A stretch of 64,000 nt of DNA from an uncultured Acidimicrobiaceae bacterium. Lineage in GTDB: Bacteria; Actinomycetota; Acidimicrobiia; Acidimicrobiales; SZUA-35. The position numbers and the translations under genes were made by a program. Shown here in pieces: positions 1 through 44,661 of this stretch. The notes beneath the pieces are model-generated. The model was not told where the DNA came from, searched no databases, and saw only the letters and a program-made list of their open reading frames with translations. Location of the stretch: positions 44,345 to 108,344 of the forward strand of contig CAZYMB010000005.1 in NCBI GenBank assembly GCA_964648795.1. Reading direction: 5' to 3'. The number at the start of each line of letters is the position of its first letter. The first letter of the stretch is position 1.

Positions 1-909
1 TGTCCAGGCTTCGAAGGGCCATTGGCTCCTCTAGCTTCAGTGACATGTGAATTCGAGATTGAAGTCACAGATCCAAGCCACGTAAATGGTGCGGCTGCTA
101 CTGGAGGTCCAACAGACAACAACGGTGACCCAATCCTTACAGGTGGCGGCGAACCAGTACTCGACGAGGACGGAAACCCAGTTCTAGACGAAGACGGCAA
201 CCCAGTCCTAACCGAAGGTGAACCACTATTCGACAACCCTACTGCTGGCGATGATGCTGAGACTCTGTTCCCAGGAATCGACCTAGTAAAGGTTGCAGGA
301 GATGCGCCTGACGGTGAGGTTCTAATCTCAAGTGTTGAAGAGGTTACATTTACCTTCACTGTCACTAACACTGGTGGAACTCACTTGAGTGATACCCAAA
401 TCGTAGATGACGCTGGGACCCCTAGCGACACAACAGATGATGTAACGTTAACGTCAGCTGATTGCGCTGAACTGGCTGGACCACTAGCTCCAGGTGAGTC
501 CATTGAATGTACTCTGACTCTGAGCGTGACTGAGAGTCCGTACGTTAACAACGCTACGACTATTGGTACACCAACTGATGAAAACGGTGACCCTTACACT
601 TCGGGTGATGTTCCACTTCTTGATGAAGATGGTAACCCAGTCCTAGATGCAGACGGTAACCCAGTCTTGGTTCCAGGTGAACCATACGACTTGGCTGACG
701 TAACCGACGAAGACCCTGCAGAAGTAGAGATACCTGAAACTCTCGCTCTGACAGATGAATCTAGCGATTCTGCAGAAGAACCTGAAACTCCTCCACTAGC
801 ATTCACTGGAGCGACCACACTGCTTCTAGTATCAACGGCTCTATCAATACTGGCTGCAGGTACTTTGATGGTACTTGCCGCTCGAAGACGACGAGAGACC
901 GTAGCCTAA
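1..909 (+). CDS. Sortase-anchored surface protein, C-terminal part (5' truncated by window edge); DUF7507/DUF11-like Ig repeat(s) with LAFTG sorting signal
   Basis: Frame 1 is open from base 1. It contains an 'IDLVKVA...VTFTFTVTNTGGTHLSDTQIVD...LAPGESIECT...YVNNATTIG' Ig-like repeat. It ends with LAFTG (796-810), a hydrophobic helix and an RRRR tail, i.e. a class E-type actinobacterial sorting signal. Confidence 0.85.
   Translation, partial: CPGFEGPLAPLASVTCEFEIEVTDPSHVNGAAATGGPTDNNGDPILTGGGEPVLDEDGNPVLDEDGNPVLTEGEPLFDNPTAGDDAETLFPGIDLVKVAGDAPDGEVLISSVEEVTFTFTVTNTGGTHLSDTQIVDDAGTPSDTTDDVTLTSADCAELAGPLAPGESIECTLTLSVTESPYVNNATTIGTPTDENGDPYTSGDVPLLDEDGNPVLDADGNPVLVPGEPYDLADVTDEDPAEVEIPETLALTDESSDSAEEPETPPLAFTGATTLLLVSTALSILAAGTLMVLAARRRRETVA
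154..210 (+). repeat. Coding tandem repeat PVLDEDGN x2 + PVL (24-nt unit); second copy at 613-669
   Basis: Translation PVLDEDGNPVLDEDGNPVL at 154-210 and PLLDEDGNPVLDADGNPVL at 613-669. Confidence 0.9.
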
Positions 910-22318: not shown

Positions 22319-23326
22319 TTACCCAGAAGTCTCTGCTGCTGTTGCCGCTGCCGCTGAAAAGAAATCTGCTGTAGGTGTTTGGAAATCCACGATGGCAGCA
22401 GTCACAGTTAAAAAGCCAAGGAAAATGATGGTTACGTATGCAAGTGGAGTCAACTTATGAATGTTGAACATATAGTTCTTGTTTCGTGTTACTAAACGAG
22501 TAACGCCATCAAACACAGCAGCAACTGCATGTGATCCATCAAGCGGCGGGAACGGCAACAAGTTAACAAGTCCTACGGCGGCCGAAACAATTGCAAGCCA
22601 TACCAGGCTGCTGTTCAAACCAGAATTAAATGCCTGTTCGGAGATCGCAGCCAAAGTTTTTGGCCCAGCAAACGCAACTTCGACTTCCTCAGGGTTATTA
22701 ACAACATCGTCCAGATACCCAACAGGATTCTGAATTAAAGTCCAGAACTGACCCAGTGTCAGTGTGATGAGCGTCCAGAACTGCGTAAATGCATGGTTGA
22801 CCGCTTGACCTAGTGCTGCTCCTTGTAGCAAGGCGCTCGCTGTGAAAGCTGCAAGTGCGACGAAGAAGTTAACAAACGGCCCTGCCAGAATAGTCATTAA
22901 GCGCCCAAACGCCGATGCGCCTCTAAACGAGTCCTCCTCATCAAACCCTTCTGGAAGCTCTGACTGAGAAGTCATACCCTCTAGCTTTACGTAGCCGCCA
23001 GCCGAGATGAACTTAAGACCGTAACGAGAGTTCTTTGTCTGAATGGCAAATACCTCCGGACCAAAGCCCCAGAAAAATTCAGCTGGTTTCATGCCCGAAA
23101 GTTTGGCAACAAAGAAGTGTCCCGCCTCATGTGTGGTAATAACGATTCCTAAAGTGATGAGGACATAGAGAGCTGGTGGGAATATGAAAGCTAGAGCAAT
23201 TATCGGCAATATCGTCGCAAGTGCCCACGGTATTGATGCTTCAAATTTTGCGCCTTTTACCTGCCATGGAAGCGTTACTTGCTTCCCTAGGACTGAGATC
23301 TCTTTCTTAGTAACTGCCAATTTCAT
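22319..23326 (-). CDS. Site-2 (M50, RseP-like) intramembrane metalloprotease without PDZ
   Basis: HEAGH, FFWGFGP, AGGYVKL.GM, LAGPFVN, NLLPFPPLDG. Confidence 0.9.
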   Translation of the reverse strand: MKLAVTKKEISVLGKQVTLPWQVKGAKFEASIPWALATILPIIALAFIFPPALYVLITLGIVITTHEAGHFFVAKLSGMKPAEFFWGFGPEVFAIQTKNSRYGLKFISAGGYVKLEGMTSQSELPEGFDEEDSFRGASAFGRLMTILAGPFVNFFVALAAFTASALLQGAALGQAVNHAFTQFWTLITLTLGQFWTLIQNPVGYLDDVVNNPEEVEVAFAGPKTLAAISEQAFNSGLNSSLVWLAIVSAAVGLVNLLPFPPLDGSHAVAAVFDGVTRLVTRNKNYMFNIHKLTPLAYVTIIFLGFLTVTAAIVDFQTPTADFFSAAAATAAETSG

Positions 23327-31337: not shown

Positions 31338-33311
31338 ATGATTATGCGAGATCTGAGTATTCGGGTCAAAATGAGCGAGGAGAATCCTGTGAAACCCCAG
31401 GAAAACGGCGAAGAAAATCAAACTAGAAACCCATTTGGGTTTAAACAGGTCCTACTTGGCGACCCGGCCACGGTGGCCGTTGTCGTAGGTTCTACCGACG
31501 ACTGGGACACAGAACATATCGAGCGCCTCAACCAGATTTCAAACACAGCAGGCCTGACTCCATTGTTAGACGTCGACTTCACAAGCGACAAACAACCTTA
31601 TGCTGCCTATCCTCTACTCGACTACCCGACTTTTGCAGACGTAGTTGCAGAAAAGAAAGCGACCTGGAAAGACAAAGTTGCGATTCTTTCTGTTGCTGCC
31701 GAGACTCTCCACAAAGCTCACGAACTAGGCCTTGTGCATGGTGCTCTCAGCCCAGAACGCATCTTGGTTAAAGGCGACGATGTGGTCATTGACTCACTCG
31801 GCCTAAGCAAAGGTGGCACCTTGCCAGATGGGTCTGAGCAATACGTTGCTCCTGAAGTGGCTGATGGCACCGAGCCTCGGGCATCTGCTGACCTTTTTGC
31901 TCTAGGAAAAATGATCGACGAGAGCTTTGATAAAGATGACAAGAAGCCACGATCCCTGTCCAGGCTCTCAAAGTGGGCTATTTCAGACGTCCCAGAAACT
32001 AGACCACCATCTGCTGAGGAAATGGCCTCCGTTATGGCGGACAGTCTGGGCGACTATTCTTCTTCATATCGTCCCGGCTACGTCCCAACTACCGACTACG
32101 TTAGTGTTATGGAAAACATCGATAAAGACGTCGCCAACTCCACCAACAAAGACTCAGATGATGCTCTGGACTTTGAAGAAGTTCATGCTGATGAATCACG
32201 AAGAGTCGGTTCTGCAGATATTGCAGACACAGAAGACATCTTCGTATCGGATGAGGAAGAGAAACGTGGAATCGGCTTTGTTGGTGTCGCCTTAATAGCT
32301 GCCCTAGCCGCTGTGCTGGCTTTCTGGGCCTTAAGAGATGACGATAGCGAAATCGCAAGCTCCGACGAAGAAACTGCCGAAGTTGCTGCTCCGACTACAG
32401 ATTCTGACGACGAAGACTCCGACGATGATGAAGCTGAGGAGGACGAAGACGAAGATGAGTCTGATGAAGAAGCTGAAGATGACTCAGAAGAAGACTCTGA
32501 TGAAGAAGATGAAGACTCTGAGCCTGAAGCAGCCGAAGAAGAACCAGCTCCTGTCGAAGAAGCTCCAACCTCAGCTTCTCCAATCGAGCTAACTACTGAC
32601 TCAGAAGGACTTCAGATTGTTAATGCTCTCCCAGAAGAACCAATCGACCTCTACATAGATGGCGAGTTGGCAGTTGCTAATTTCACTTCCGGTACCCTTG
32701 CTGGTCCTGCTGACAACGGAACAGACACATACACCCTCTCAGCTTTCGAAGCAGCTGATTCACCCGCTCAGTCTGATGACGACCGAGACGATGACGAGCT
32801 CATCTCCGAGACTCTTACTTTCGTAAATAGTCCACAATTAGCTTCGATCGCAAATATCGATGGGGAGCTTACTATCGATTCGATAGATCTGGACACAAGC
32901 CAAGTTGCTGCAGGTGAGTCACGAATCACTGTCTTTAACTTCAGCACCGAACCTGCGGAAGGTTCAGTAAATGACTCGCCACTTAGTCTGGAATCAGGCG
33001 ACTCGGCGACTGTAGAAGTAGCAGAAGACTCAGCTGAGATTGATCTTGAAATCGACGGTGAAACAGAAACCGTTGGGCTAACGCAGACCGAAGGTCAACT
33101 CACAAGCGTCTATGTATTCTCTGATGAAAACGGCGAGATTCAGGTCTCAGAGCTAAGAGTCTCAGGTATCGAGACAGCCCCTGCCTCAGTACCAACCGGT
33201 GACAGTGGCCTAGCTGGCACCATGGGAACGAGTCTACAATTTGCTACAATCCTCGCCCTACTTGCCTTTGGAGTTGCCCTACTAAAGGGACGACGTGCGA
33301 GGACTCTCTAG
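31338..33311 (+). CDS. Ser/Thr pseudokinase - TM - acidic spacer - DUF4397-like ectodomain - VPTG sorting signal
   Basis: Kinase subdomains: LVHGALSPERILV (31737), IDSLG, YVAPE, SADLFALG, RPPSA. TM KRGIGFVGVALIAALAAVLAFWAL at 32268. LQIVNALPEEPIDLYIDGELAVANF DUF4397-like start. APASVPTGDSG + TM + KGRRAR tail. Confidence 0.8.
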   Translation: MIMRDLSIRVKMSEENPVKPQENGEENQTRNPFGFKQVLLGDPATVAVVVGSTDDWDTEHIERLNQISNTAGLTPLLDVDFTSDKQPYAAYPLLDYPTFADVVAEKKATWKDKVAILSVAAETLHKAHELGLVHGALSPERILVKGDDVVIDSLGLSKGGTLPDGSEQYVAPEVADGTEPRASADLFALGKMIDESFDKDDKKPRSLSRLSKWAISDVPETRPPSAEEMASVMADSLGDYSSSYRPGYVPTTDYVSVMENIDKDVANSTNKDSDDALDFEEVHADESRRVGSADIADTEDIFVSDEEEKRGIGFVGVALIAALAAVLAFWALRDDDSEIASSDEETAEVAAPTTDSDDEDSDDDEAEEDEDEDESDEEAEDDSEEDSDEEDEDSEPEAAEEEPAPVEEAPTSASPIELTTDSEGLQIVNALPEEPIDLYIDGELAVANFTSGTLAGPADNGTDTYTLSAFEAADSPAQSDDDRDDDELISETLTFVNSPQLASIANIDGELTIDSIDLDTSQVAAGESRITVFNFSTEPAEGSVNDSPLSLESGDSATVEVAEDSAEIDLEIDGETETVGLTQTEGQLTSVYVFSDENGEIQVSELRVSGIETAPASVPTGDSGLAGTMGTSLQFATILALLAFGVALLKGRRARTL

Positions 33312-33927
33312 TCATAGACTAATCTGGTCGTTAATTGGTCTCTCAGCCATTGTTGCTGCGGGGTTTAGTTCGCTTGCCGCAGCATCGACTACTACTGCTC
33401 CGGAGGTCTCAACCGAATCAGTAGATCAACTCGAAGCGAAACCTGATATTGAGATTTCCAAACTGAGTCAATCAGAAAATTCAGACCGGATTGCTCCAAC
33501 TCAAATTGCAGTACCAAGCATCGATGTTGATGCCCCAGTACTAAGTGTCGGTGTCAACGCTATTGGAGACTTCGATGTTCCAGGTGCTGACGCCGCAGGC
33601 TGGTACCAGTTTGGTGCAGGCCCAGGCGATCCCGGCAATATGGTAATAGCAGCTCATGTCGACTACCAAGGTGTTCCAGGGGTATTCTTCGACCTAGCCG
33701 AGCTCAATGAAGGGGAACTGATTCGGGTCGAATCAGACGGAGAATGGGTGGAATATAGCGTCACCAGCACCACTAACTATGAGCGTATCTCATTGCCCAG
33801 TACAGACCTATTTAGCCGCTCTGGAGACCATTCACTCGTTCTTATCACCTGCGGAGGCGACTTTGACCATGTCGAGCGCTCCTATACCGACAATGTTGTA
33901 GTGACTGCTACGCCAATATCGGGCTAG
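33295..33927 (+). CDS. Class F sortase
   Basis: N-terminal anchor, P..I.VPSI.V.A.V, AGWY..G..PG..GN.VIAAHVD, LITCGGDFD...Y.DN.VV. Overlaps the upstream gene by 17 nt. Confidence 0.93.
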   Translation: MRGLSSHRLIWSLIGLSAIVAAGFSSLAAASTTTAPEVSTESVDQLEAKPDIEISKLSQSENSDRIAPTQIAVPSIDVDAPVLSVGVNAIGDFDVPGADAAGWYQFGAGPGDPGNMVIAAHVDYQGVPGVFFDLAELNEGELIRVESDGEWVEYSVTSTTNYERISLPSTDLFSRSGDHSLVLITCGGDFDHVERSYTDNVVVTATPISG

Positions 33928-33936
33928 ACTGAAACT

Positions 33937-34668
33937 ATGGCGCATCCCCGAACAAGCTTGCGGGCGAATGAAAAGGTAATCCTCGATTCGAGGCCTCACT
34001 GGTGGTTTTTTGTACGGCCCATCTCTTTATTGGTCGTCTCCATTGTTGTGGCTATCGTTGTTCTTCTGCGAGCCGATCAAGCTGAAATAGTTGCACAGAA
34101 CCCTGACTTAGATTCAGCCGACTTGGATTTCCTAAACAGCGGCGGCCAAATTGGAATCGGCCAGAACTTGGACTCAATTCTGCAGATTTTAGCCAGTGCC
34201 CTTATTCTTGCATCGCTACTCATCTTGGTTGTCACAGCCGTCACCTGGTATTTCACACACTTCTTTGTAACTGACCAACGTGTCGTGCTTCGAGCCGGTG
34301 TCCTAAACCGAGAAGGTGTCGAGATTCCCCTAGACCGTGTTAACACAGTCTTCTTCGAACAAAACTTTATCGAACGAATCGTTGGTTCTGGTGATGTCTT
34401 GGTCGAATCTGCTGGTGAGAGCGGCGTGCAAAGGTTCTTTGACATTGCCCACCCATTGGCAGTTAAGGATCGATTGCGCAAATACATCGACCTTTCTCAG
34501 AAGAAATCCAAACCAACTTCGGCTGTAAATGCAATGCAGCCAATACCGGCCCCTAAAACAACCCCAATTACCACTCAGATTCGAGAGCTAAGCGACCTTC
34601 ACGAAGCGCAGATTCTGACAAGCGAAGAGTTCGAGTCCAAGAAAGCCGAGTTGTTGGCTCGAATTTAG
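33937..34668 (+). CDS. Bacterial PH-domain (bPH_2) membrane protein with C-terminal SHOCT
   Basis: L..NE.VI...RPHW, two TMs, F.VTDQRV..R.GVL.R...EIPL.R, G.GD..VESAGE, IRELSDLH...ILTSEEFE.KKAELL. Confidence 0.9.
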   Translation: MAHPRTSLRANEKVILDSRPHWWFFVRPISLLVVSIVVAIVVLLRADQAEIVAQNPDLDSADLDFLNSGGQIGIGQNLDSILQILASALILASLLILVVTAVTWYFTHFFVTDQRVVLRAGVLNREGVEIPLDRVNTVFFEQNFIERIVGSGDVLVESAGESGVQRFFDIAHPLAVKDRLRKYIDLSQKKSKPTSAVNAMQPIPAPKTTPITTQIRELSDLHEAQILTSEEFESKKAELLARI

Positions 34669-37323: not shown

Positions 37324-37926
37324 GTGCTATATCCGTTTGCCTTACTAGGCACGTGGGCACACGAAACTGGTCACGGTCTAGCAGCAATTTTGGTCGGTGG
37401 TAAGTTTAAATCCTTAGAGCTCTACTCAAACCTTGGAGGCGTAGCTTACTCAACTGGCACTGCTAACCGCAAAACAGCATTCGTGGCTGCAGGCGGTCTT
37501 CTTGGTCCCGCAATTGTCGGTGCCATCGTCATCTTGTTTTCAGCACGTGAAGAACTAGCTCCCTGGGTCGTACTAGCGATTGCAATTTGTGTGGCATTCA
37601 CTACAGTCCGCTGGGTAAGAAACCGATTCGGTTTCGCTGCAATGATCGCCATCTCCGTTGGCCTAGTTGGATCTACTATCTACGCCCCCGCTAATGTAAA
37701 CATATTTCTGGGTCAGCTGATTGGCATCCAATTCTCCGTTGCCTGCTGGAATACTCTTGATTACATGTTCACAAAGCACTTTTACAACAATGGCCGCCTG
37801 ACGAACTCCGATACTCAAGACATCTCTGAATCCATAGGGTTTCCCTACTGGTTTTGGGCATCTCTCATAAGTCTGGCAAGTGCCGGGCTACTTGGCCTCT
37901 CGTTCTATATTGCGTGGCTAAACTAG
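37324..37926 (+). CDS. Peptidase M50B-like membrane metalloprotease
   Basis: TWAHETGH.LAA...GG, AAGGLLGP, SD...I. The reading frame with a hydrophobic helix continues upstream to 37219 with no canonical start. Confidence 0.85.
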   Translation: MLYPFALLGTWAHETGHGLAAILVGGKFKSLELYSNLGGVAYSTGTANRKTAFVAAGGLLGPAIVGAIVILFSAREELAPWVVLAIAICVAFTTVRWVRNRFGFAAMIAISVGLVGSTIYAPANVNIFLGQLIGIQFSVACWNTLDYMFTKHFYNNGRLTNSDTQDISESIGFPYWFWASLISLASAGLLGLSFYIAWLN

Positions 37927-44337: not shown

Positions 44338-44661
44338 ATGAAGAAACTAACAATACTTGCAGCAATTCTAGGTCTTGGCCTAGCAGCATGTTCTGACGCA
44401 GTTGACGGTGTTACTGACGCTGTTGACGAAGCTGGCGACGTAGCTGGTGACGTAGTTGACGAAGCTGGCGATGTAGCTGGTGACGTTGCTGACGAAGCAG
44501 TTGACGCTGTTGACGGTGAAGACGAAGTAGAGACTGACGAAGAAGTTGAAACTGACGAAGAAGTAGAGACTGACGAAGAAGTAGAGACTGACGAAGAAGT
44601 TGAAACTGACGAAGAAGTTGAAACTGACGAAGAAGTAGAGACTGAAGAAGAAGAAGGCTAA
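44338..44661 (+). CDS. Hyper-acidic repeat lipoprotein (107 aa)
   Basis: AGGAG SD, MKKLTILAAILGLGLAAC lipobox. Mature part is 47/90 Asp+Glu with no K/R/H and no aromatic residues. Confidence 0.88.
   Translation: MKKLTILAAILGLGLAACSDAVDGVTDAVDEAGDVAGDVVDEAGDVAGDVADEAVDAVDGEDEVETDEEVETDEEVETDEEVETDEEVETDEEVETDEEVETEEEEG
44524..44649 (+). repeat. 18-nt coding tandem repeat x7 (EVETDE)
   Basis: Units gaagtagagactgacgaa / gaagttgaaactgacgaa. An upstream 33-nt duplication encodes VDEAGDVAGDV x2. Confidence 0.95.

Follow-up and report, generated by a model that had tools for sequence, protein, structure and literature searches.

The sortase substrates described so far are secreted proteins from which an N-terminal signal peptide is removed (PMC12445088). 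Class F sortases are numerous in Actinobacteria, with five in S. coelicolor and four in Actinoplanes, and their physiological roles were still unknown in 2026 (PMC13251363, PMC8225981). Here we analyze a pair of overlapping open reading frames (ORFs), ORF A and ORF B, in a stretch of 64,000 nucleotides (nt), called the window below, from an uncultured Acidimicrobiaceae bacterium (assembly GCA_964648795.1, contig CAZYMB010000005.1, forward-strand positions 44,345 to 108,344). The pair was originally predicted, from the sequence of the window, to encode a kinase-type receptor tethered to the cell wall through its C terminus and the class F sortase that tethers it. We conclude that ORF A and ORF B form a dedicated sortase-substrate pair, an assignment well supported by comparison of related loci, and that the substrate is, as judged by alignment and structure prediction, an envelope-spanning pseudokinase.

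Several described systems resemble parts of this arrangement. MviN is an actinobacterial membrane protein in which a dead cytoplasmic Hanks-fold domain is joined through a transmembrane (TM) segment to an extracytoplasmic domain, and it serves as a regulated scaffold in wall synthesis; the pseudokinase domain of MviN (Rv3910) of M. tuberculosis was reportedly treated by Gee et al. in Sci Signal in 2012. EssB/YukC of type VIIb secretion is bitopic, with an N-terminal cytoplasmic pseudokinase fold, one TM helix, and an extracellular domain. Yeast Wsc1 and Mid2 and the plant wall-associated kinases have a wall-bound head, a long low-complexity "spring" that is Ser/Thr rich or acidic, a single TM segment, and a cytoplasmic signaling or scaffold region. 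Work on EssB/YukC is cited as Tassinari 2022 in PMC13622651. In the literature searched, which left subscription-only papers outside, no description was found of a sortase-processed protein with a cytoplasmic domain, of a pairing of DUF4397 with class F sortases, or of a cassette of DUF4397, sortase, extracytoplasmic function (ECF) sigma factor, and anti-sigma factor. Searches for pseudokinase with sortase, for sortase with wall-associated kinase, and for Acidimicrobiia with sortase likewise returned nothing relevant.

The window encodes the pair as follows (coordinates are window positions; aa, amino acids; AF2, AlphaFold2).

31338..33311, + strand: ORF A, 657 aa, pseudokinase, TM helix, acidic spacer, DUF4397 ectodomain, and sorting signal
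31428..32123, + strand: pseudokinase domain (residues ~31-262), from motifs in alignments, an AF2 model, and Foldseek matches to kinases only
32124..32261, + strand: cytoplasmic juxtamembrane linker (residues 263-308), acidic, ending in EEEKR
32262..32342, + strand: TM1 (residues ~309-335), predicted N-in, with K/R on the N-side and a D-rich C-side
32343..32606, + strand: extracytoplasmic low-complexity spacer (residues 336-423), 88 aa, 55% D/E
32607..33164, + strand: ectodomain of two tandem beta-sandwiches (residues ~424-609), from Pfam and AF2
33165..33212, + strand: conserved sorting motif GIETAPASVPTGDSGL (residues 610-625), from a logo of 21 members
33222..33284, + strand: hydrophobic helix of the sorting signal, TM2 (residues 629-649), from hydropathy and the AF2 model
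33285..33308, + strand: positively charged cytoplasmic tail KGRRARTL (residues 650-657)
33295..33927, + strand: ORF B, class-F-like sortase, 210 aa, GTG start

Every sequence feature on which the original prediction had been built was present: a kinase fold, a TM helix, an acidic spacer, DUF4397, a VPTG tail, and a sortase gene that overlaps ORF A by 17 nt. The arrangement indicates that the sortase gene is translationally coupled to that of its substrate. The start of ORF A could be the ATG at 31371 (M12; MSEENP...) rather than the ATG at 31338. The 11 extra residues read from the earlier codon (MIMRDLSIRVK) had no counterpart in homologues, which carry only ~13 to 20 residues N-terminal to a conserved WFG motif in a 15-sequence alignment, and no strong Shine-Dalgarno sequence was found at either ATG.

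The N-terminal domain of ORF A was weakly similar in sequence to protein kinases and strongly similar to them in predicted structure. Pfam Pkinase (PF00069) scored 19.3 bits, against a gathering cutoff of 31.7, and matched the C-lobe only (profile positions 95-189), and NCBIfam PknB_PASTA_kin scored 30 bits against a cutoff of 450. The best sequence matches in the PDB were PknB and PknA; by phmmer, residues 84-196 aligned to M. tuberculosis PknB (E=4e-5), with HGALSPER facing HRDVKPAN and SLG facing DFG. AF2 modeling of residues 1-261 from an alignment of 15 family members gave a bilobal protein-kinase fold (predicted local distance difference test [pLDDT], 87.8; predicted template-modeling score, 0.84), and Foldseek comparison of the model with the PDB returned protein kinases only (probability 1.00, template-modeling score of ~0.5 to 0.6, ~260 aligned columns), led by the bacterial Hanks kinases PknS, Stk1, PknA/B, and PknG.

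The catalytic residues, like a Pkinase score above the cutoff, were missing. ORF A reads VAVVVG in place of VAIK (residues 46-51), HGALSPER in place of HRDxKxxN (134-141), so that Ser and Arg occupy the catalytic-loop Lys and Asn positions, and IDSLG in place of DFG (151-155). In alignments of 3 and of 15 homologues, the beta-3 Lys position was V/T/I followed by Gly, the HRD position was invariably HG[A/G/S/D], and the DFG Asp position was not conserved (D/A/N/S); a Gly-rich loop was found neither in ORF A nor in the 15 aligned homologues. Structural motifs were retained, namely APEV (171-174), ADLFALG (184-190), and an RP motif (222-223) in ORF A, and APE, SD[VI][YF]SLG of subdomain IX, and the subdomain XI Arg across homologues. 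The domain was moreover the best-conserved part of the protein (profile E values down to 1e-122), and public records name the family proteins "hypothetical" or "DUF4397 domain-containing," the kinase fold having been missed. We conclude from the alignments and the model that the N-terminal domain is a pseudokinase conserved family-wide and not the decayed kinase of one genome. The "Hanks-type kinase" of the original prediction was correct as a fold and incorrect as an enzyme, given the residues missing from ORF A and 15 homologues. Because the beta-3 Lys, the HRD Asp, and the DFG Asp were lost throughout the family, any output would pass only through scaffolding or protein-protein contacts and not through phosphorylation.

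A role as an anti-phage defense kinase was rejected. The PADLOC systems PD-T4-6, Stk2, PglW, and MkoA gave only generic kinase-domain similarity (≤39 bits), the PADLOC search found no match for the sortase or the gene downstream of it, and the neighborhood is housekeeping in character.

Hydropathy analysis of ORF A indicated two hydrophobic segments, at residues 309-335 and 629-651. The first, TM1, is preceded by EEEKR and followed by RDDD, flanks that fit an N-in topology. The low-complexity spacer beyond TM1 was present in every family member (51 to 251 aa, median 115, 3 to 18% hydrophobic), and its composition shifted between lineages among D/E, T/A, S, and T/P, which indicates that length and disorder of the spacer are maintained and that its sequence is not. 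The linker between the pseudokinase domain and TM1 ranged from 6 to 245 aa across the family. In many homologues, this cytoplasmic linker is long, up to ~245 aa, and acidic or Ala/Gly rich, and TM1 is thus bordered on both sides of the membrane by disordered spacers of highly variable length throughout the family.

Pfam DUF4397 (PF14344) matched residues 425-537 of the ectodomain at 34.4 bits, above the gathering cutoff of 30.6, and precomputed annotation of the homologues' ectodomains also carries PF14344. An AF2 model of the ectodomain consisted of two tandem beta-sandwiches (pLDDT, 85.7), the first of which is the one matched by DUF4397. The nearest folds in the PDB were the immunoglobulin-like extracellular domains of PepT1/PepT2, two AlgF domains, and the luminal domain of HGSNAT, and we conclude from the model that the ectodomain consists of binding or scaffold folds without a catalytic signature. 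Hydropathy, composition, and Pfam therefore bore out the KR-preceded N-in helix, the D/E spacer, and the DUF4397 domain that had been read from the sequence.

ORF A ends in ...GIETAPASVPTGDSGLAGTMGTSLQFATILALLAFGVALLKGRRARTL, in which VPTG occupies residues 618-621. The motif GL.[ST]AP..[VI]P[TSA]G[DN]SGL was present in 21 of 21 full-length family members and belongs to a longer conserved block, (Q/R)R.(S/T)GL.(S/T)AP..[VI]P[TSA]G[DN]SGL, that is the most conserved stretch of their extracytoplasmic part. The Gly, the [VI] position, and the Leu at +4 were each found in all 21 and the Pro in 20. The motif lies 34 to 50 residues from the C terminus and is followed by a hydrophobic helix of ~20 residues and an RR.R tail. 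The tripartite sorting signal suspected in ORF A, VPTG with a hydrophobic helix and KGRRAR, is therefore both present and conserved. A canonical LPXTG or LAXTG pentapeptide was not found, the motif being x-[VI]-P-[TSA]-G, nor was a cleavable N-terminal signal peptide, as the first hydrophobic segment (309-335) comes after a folded domain of 260 residues. In the ectodomain model, the motif block was the sole low-confidence, nonregular segment between the last beta-strand and the TM2 helix and should, being disordered, be accessible. We propose the bond T620|G621 as the scissile bond, on the basis of the aligned motifs; the segment ETAPASVPTGDSGL spans this proposed cleavage site, and ETAPASVPTGDSGLA is a peptide that covers the sorting motif with T620/G621.

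ORF B belongs to the sortase superfamily (Pfam Sortase, PF04203; 79.9 bits against a cutoff of 26.6). It has an N-terminal membrane anchor (residues 9-30), a candidate catalytic His121 within AAHVD (119-123), and a candidate catalytic Cys186 within LITCGG (183-188), and the His and Cys were conserved in 12 of 12 sortases from family loci. Arg195 (ERSY), the candidate third member of the triad, was conserved in 9 of the 12. Sortases of related loci were 35 to 43% identical to ORF B. Among NCBIfam classes, the best was class F (NF033748; 134.9 bits), followed at a distance by class E (41). The assignment to class F in the original prediction was thus right as to the nearest class and the His and Cys seen in the sequence, and it overstated membership, the score lying below the curated cutoff of 166 bits; we call ORF B class-F-like.

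To trace the fused family, a profile of the N-terminal domain was searched against 1.84 billion cluster representatives. A word-based search with full-length ORF A had returned two relatives only, as words from the acidic spacer filled the candidate list, and the exhaustive profile search was used instead. It returned ~15 clusters at E values of 1e-45 to 1e-122 and ~10 more at 1e-26 to 1e-36, beyond which came generic multidomain kinases, giving a fused family of ~20 to 25 clusters at 50% identity. Full-length members (595 to 923 aa) all consist of a pseudokinase, a variable cytoplasmic linker, one TM helix with R/K on its N-side and D/E on its C-side, a low-complexity spacer, the ectodomain, and the tail. 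All members with a source name came from Acidimicrobiales metagenome-assembled genomes. For the search of loci, the 15-sequence N-terminal alignment was too divergent and a 3-sequence alignment was used; a Myxococcales locus (L005) and a Gemmatimonadales locus (L006) proved to be generic kinase matches (28 to 33% identity over the C-lobe) and were set aside.

A sortase gene lay directly downstream of the fused gene, on the same strand, in 11 of 12 independent loci, often with boundaries overlapping by 4 to 17 nt. The loci with a downstream Pfam Sortase gene are the window, L001, L003, L004, L007, L008, L009, L010/L011, L014, L015, and L016. Flanking genes differed between loci, with otsA-aroA...pepN in one clade and acyl-CoA dehydrogenases, a NUDIX hydrolase, or a large regulator in others. 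Because the fusion recurs in loci of 38 to 73% GC content, it is not an assembly chimera, and since the tail is kept in all full-length homologues, neither of the two ways in which homologues might have overturned the original prediction materialized; the co-occurrence it had suggested looking for, of pseudokinase, DUF4397, and adjacent sortase, was found in 11 of the 12 loci. We conclude that the architecture and the gene pair are not products of chance, because they recur as a whole in 11 other independent loci.

The remaining member, P0030, was found at the following positions.

L012 4001..5788 and L013 467..2254: P0030, with the tail motif IPAGDSGL intact

Its neighbors are unannotated genes that include a weak GIY-YIG match, an 1,806-aa protein, and a 793-aa protein with a faint BigA_N match, and the P0030 region could be mobile or phage-like.

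The ectodomain and tail of ORF A also exist without the pseudokinase. A single-sequence search with the ectodomain returned nothing, and a 17-sequence profile was used to find relatives. The profile of ectodomain plus tail identified ~13 clusters of stand-alone proteins of ~270 aa (E values of 1e-40 to 1e-50, 81 to 93% coverage) that begin with a classical signal peptide and lack both the spacer and the cytoplasmic domain. Their tails read G[LM]HS.P.GV[PNDQ][STAG]G, followed by a hydrophobic helix and RR. When the tails were aligned on the invariant Gly, a variable residue fell at the X of LPXTG and [TSA]-G at the scissile pair, so that x-[VI]-x-[TSA]-G is the best form in which to write the motif. 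Downstream of the stand-alone gene, genes for a sortase, an ECF-type sigma factor, and an anti-sigma factor of the RskA_C type were seen in two unrelated contexts among the related loci; the sigma factor is SigK-like, and the sortases are class-F-like, again below the class F cutoff.

A metagenome scan returned more than 330 stand-alone relatives, of which 80 loci were kept. The four-gene cassette is widespread among the related loci, which are listed as follows.

L017-L022 and L023-L102: loci of stand-alone DUF4397 proteins

A sortase gene was next to the stand-alone gene in 39 of 46 loci with at least 1 kb of downstream sequence, and the full order of DUF4397, sortase, ECF sigma, and anti-sigma was found in 22 of 28 loci with at least 3 kb. 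The sortase tally was made by ORF ends, as stop-to-stop ORFs in high-GC DNA start far upstream. Five loci that appeared to be further N-terminal fusions (L031, L039, L061, L094, and L101) were rejected, the apparent extension being stop-free Arg/Pro-rich read-through before an ordinary Met and signal peptide. Sigma and anti-sigma profiles gave no match in the 11 other fused-family loci or in the 64-kb window, and the fused and ECF-linked forms of the module appear to be mutually exclusive within the available sequence. These loci bear on two earlier statements. That a cytoplasmic domain and TM helix replace the signal peptide in ORF A was a fair description, as the same ectodomain and tail exist beside sortases in stand-alone proteins with signal peptides. 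Adjacency of class F sortases and DUF4397 proteins was seen in the loci examined here, and its presentation as established knowledge found no support in the literature searched.

The explanation toward which we lean slightly, taken as a whole, is a dedicated sortase-substrate pair whose substrate is an envelope-spanning pseudokinase that links membrane to wall and possibly senses the state of the latter. After insertion by Sec/YidC, the precursor would be a two-TM hairpin with both termini inside. The sortase Cys would attack the T620-G621 bond, TM2 and the tail would be discarded, and Thr620 would be joined to lipid II or a peptidoglycan precursor; these cleavage and anchoring steps are inferred from established sortase biochemistry (PMC12445088). 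Because TM1 is an internal segment located behind a folded domain, it would stay in the membrane. One end of the mature protein would then be held by the wall and the other by the membrane and cytoplasm, with the disordered spacer bridging the gap. In the most speculative step, growth of or damage to the wall, or its separation from the membrane, would alter the load on the pseudokinase or its oligomeric state, and the pseudokinase would pass the change to partners through oligomerization or partner binding. Signaling is considered because the stand-alone form of the ectodomain/sortase module shares its operon with a SigK/RskA-like ECF sigma/anti-sigma pair, which the fused loci lack, and this operon strengthens the idea of a tether or sensor indirectly. 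We infer that ORF A may act as a membrane-to-wall tether or sensor.

A number of observations weigh against this explanation. ORF B falls short of the curated class F cutoff, as do six related sortases (101 to 142 bits against 166), and in 3 of the 12 sortases His or Gln stands at the position of the putative triad Arg, with an Arg a few residues away. When the motif is placed in the LPXTG frame, Val or Ile stands where Pro (Ala in class E) is expected, and LPXTG is the motif used by the only characterized class F sortase, that of P. acnes (PMC8225981). In Actinoplanes, knocking out four class F sortases together produced no phenotype (PMC13251363). P0030 retains its tail with no sortase gene within 4 kb, and the gene neighborhood of the pair shows no evident cytoplasmic partner. 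Association with ECF factors may mean that the DUF4397 and sortase genes are members of the regulon and not inputs of a sensor. Cleavage at or after TM1 is possible, and sortase cleavage, wall anchoring, and signaling by ORF A are predictions from sequence.

The same architecture and synteny would also befit a structural staple that pins the membrane to the wall, or places the wall-bound DUF4397 domain at a site defined by a partner, with no flow of information. We regard such a staple as unlikely: it would account for a catalytically dead pseudokinase and for the lack of an output domain or partner gene conserved beside the pair, but the tight operon that the homologous stand-alone module forms with an ECF sigma/anti-sigma pair points to regulation, and other bacterial membrane pseudokinases, such as M. 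tuberculosis MviN and EssB/YukC, act in regulated complexes. Somewhat less likely again is that the sortase processes the tail and the product is not linked to peptidoglycan, the enzyme being a maturation or release protease or using another acceptor, such as a protein, glycolipid, or polymer. The noncanonical motif, the divergence of the sortase subgroup below the class F cutoff, the incomplete conservation of the putative triad Arg, and the unknown physiological roles of class F (PMC13251363) all leave room for such a product. The geometry of the tail is nevertheless exactly that of wall-sorting signals (PMC12445088), the sortase His and Cys are conserved, and the loci contain no pilin-type Lys motif or second substrate gene.

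Removal of the N-terminal domain, with TM1 acting as a long, cleaved signal anchor, would leave an ordinary wall-anchored DUF4397 protein and a pseudokinase fragment with a separate role or none. Textbook sortase substrates do lose their N-terminal signal (PMC12445088), and stand-alone homologues do so with a normal signal peptide; yet the pseudokinase is the part of ORF A under the strongest conservation, the fusion, TM helix, and long spacer are maintained across the entire GC range of the family, no conserved AxA-type cleavage site was seen when the flanks after TM1 were read by eye, and a folded cytoplasmic "leader" of 300 residues would be unprecedented. We consider this outcome improbable. 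Still more improbable is that the tail is a mere second TM helix, that ORF A is a hairpin membrane protein, and that the neighboring sortase acts on other proteins, as the lack of LPXTG and the member without an adjacent sortase might suggest. Within the ectodomain, the residues that immediately precede the helix vary least, the tail is shared with stand-alone proteins that also lie beside sortases, the pair is translationally coupled in most loci, and the other protein with a sorting signal in the window uses LAFTG, which is class E type. Finally, an active receptor Ser/Thr kinase that phosphorylates targets when its wall-tethered ectodomain is perturbed would explain the kinase fold, the weak Pkinase and PknB similarity, and the retained APE, subdomain IX, and subdomain XI motifs. 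It is effectively excluded by catalytic residues missing across the family: all 15 aligned homologues lack the Gly-rich loop and the beta-3 Lys, have HG[AGS] for HRD and Ser/Arg at the catalytic-loop Lys/Asn positions, and do not conserve the DFG Asp, and the Pfam score is under the gathering threshold. A tether with a possible sensing role remains the explanation that we prefer.

The gene that follows the sortase in the window encodes a membrane protein.

33937..34668, + strand: bPH_2 + SHOCT membrane protein, 9 nt after the sortase stop codon

It is probably cotranscribed with the pair, as judged from its position; a promoter and terminator scan found no terminator between the three codirectional genes and was otherwise uninformative. 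The same gene is found behind the sortase gene in L003, L007, and L008, which are syntenic, and is absent from other family loci, and it is not a core part of the system because it is conserved in the syntenic subclade only. A DUF8091 (PF26351) gene was observed directly upstream, on the same strand, in two high-GC loci (L001 1171..1869 and L009 713..1399) and is absent from the clade of the window. At the edge of the window, a partial ORF (1..909, + strand) encodes a DUF7507/DUF11-repeat surface protein that ends in PPLAFTG, a hydrophobic helix, and RRRR. PPLAFTG is a class E-type LAXTG signal, which makes it probable that this genome encodes a housekeeping class E sortase pathway as well, distinct from the VPTG/class-F-like pair; within the 64-kb window, ORF B was the only sortase found. 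Site-2 proteases process membrane signaling proteins, and two M50-family membrane metalloproteases are encoded at 22319..23326 (- strand; Peptidase_M50, site-2-protease type) and 37324..37926 (+ strand; Peptidase_M50B-like), ~8 kb and ~3.4 kb from the pair, respectively. No evidence of a link between the two metalloproteases and the pair was seen.

The textbook rule for sortase substrates would be broken by one in which a TM helix and a folded cytoplasmic domain are kept. Such a protein would be attached covalently to the wall while still sitting in the membrane and would connect the two directly, whether mechanically or by passing information, and to our knowledge a direct covalent membrane-to-wall link of this kind has not been described in bacteria. 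Coupling to a pseudokinase in one lineage and to ECF sigma/anti-sigma pairs in many gives class F sortases a testable hypothesis, that of envelope signaling, and the substrate motif x-[VI]-x-[TSA]-G is offered for class F biochemistry. We also suggest, tentatively and with more doubt than belief, that peptidoglycan-fixed DUF4397 proteins and their dedicated class-F-like sortases form a general actinobacterial reporter of wall state with two readouts: a SigK/RskA-type pair in many Actinobacteria or a fused pseudokinase in Acidimicrobiales, the latter being a covalent membrane-to-wall tether. If true, such a reporter would be a bacterial equivalent of the Wsc/Mid sensors of yeast and the wall-associated kinases of plants, and class F sortases would gain a first physiological role.

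Compared with canonical sortase substrates (class A LPXTG and class E LAXTG), ORF A has the same tripartite tail, with a motif that ends in [TSA]-G ~35 to 50 residues from the end, and, as in canonical systems (PMC12445088, PMC8225981), a cognate Cys-transpeptidase with His and Cys is at hand, here beside its gene. Unlike canonical substrates, ORF A has a cytoplasmic domain of ~260 residues and a predicted permanent TM helix with no cleavable signal peptide, its motif x-[VI]-P-[TSA]-G is set inside the longer block GL.[ST]AP..[VI]P[TSA]G[DN]SGL, and its sortase is dedicated and gene coupled instead of housekeeping. With the stand-alone cassette, ORF A shares a homologous two-beta-sandwich ectodomain, a tail of like design (GLHS.P.GV.[STA]G in the cassette), and a homologous sortase directly downstream; unlike that cassette, it carries a cytoplasmic pseudokinase of its own and has no sigma/anti-sigma pair, and it is not a member of that cassette.

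Similar distinctions hold for the membrane pseudokinases and wall sensors. No specific sequence relationship of ORF A to MviN was detectable, the best PDB sequence matches being PknB and PknA, and MviN is fused to a MurJ-type flippase, has a carbohydrate-binding-like ectodomain, and is not known to have a sorting signal or sortase. EssB/YukC differs in being a component of a Bacillota secretion machine and is not known to have a sorting signal, sortase, or DUF4397. Wsc1, Mid2, and the wall-associated kinases offer a functional analogy only, as they are unrelated in sequence and kingdom; their attachment to the wall is noncovalent or to pectin or glucan, and the wall-associated kinases are active enzymes. 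The PknB/Stk1 PASTA kinases provide the closest sequence and structure matches of the N-terminal domain, and like them ORF A has an N-terminal Hanks fold, a single TM helix, and a wall-directed ectodomain. PASTA kinases, however, are active and bind muropeptides noncovalently through their PASTA repeats, whereas in ORF A the kinase domain is catalytically dead, the ectodomain is of the DUF4397 type, and attachment to the wall is predicted to be covalent.

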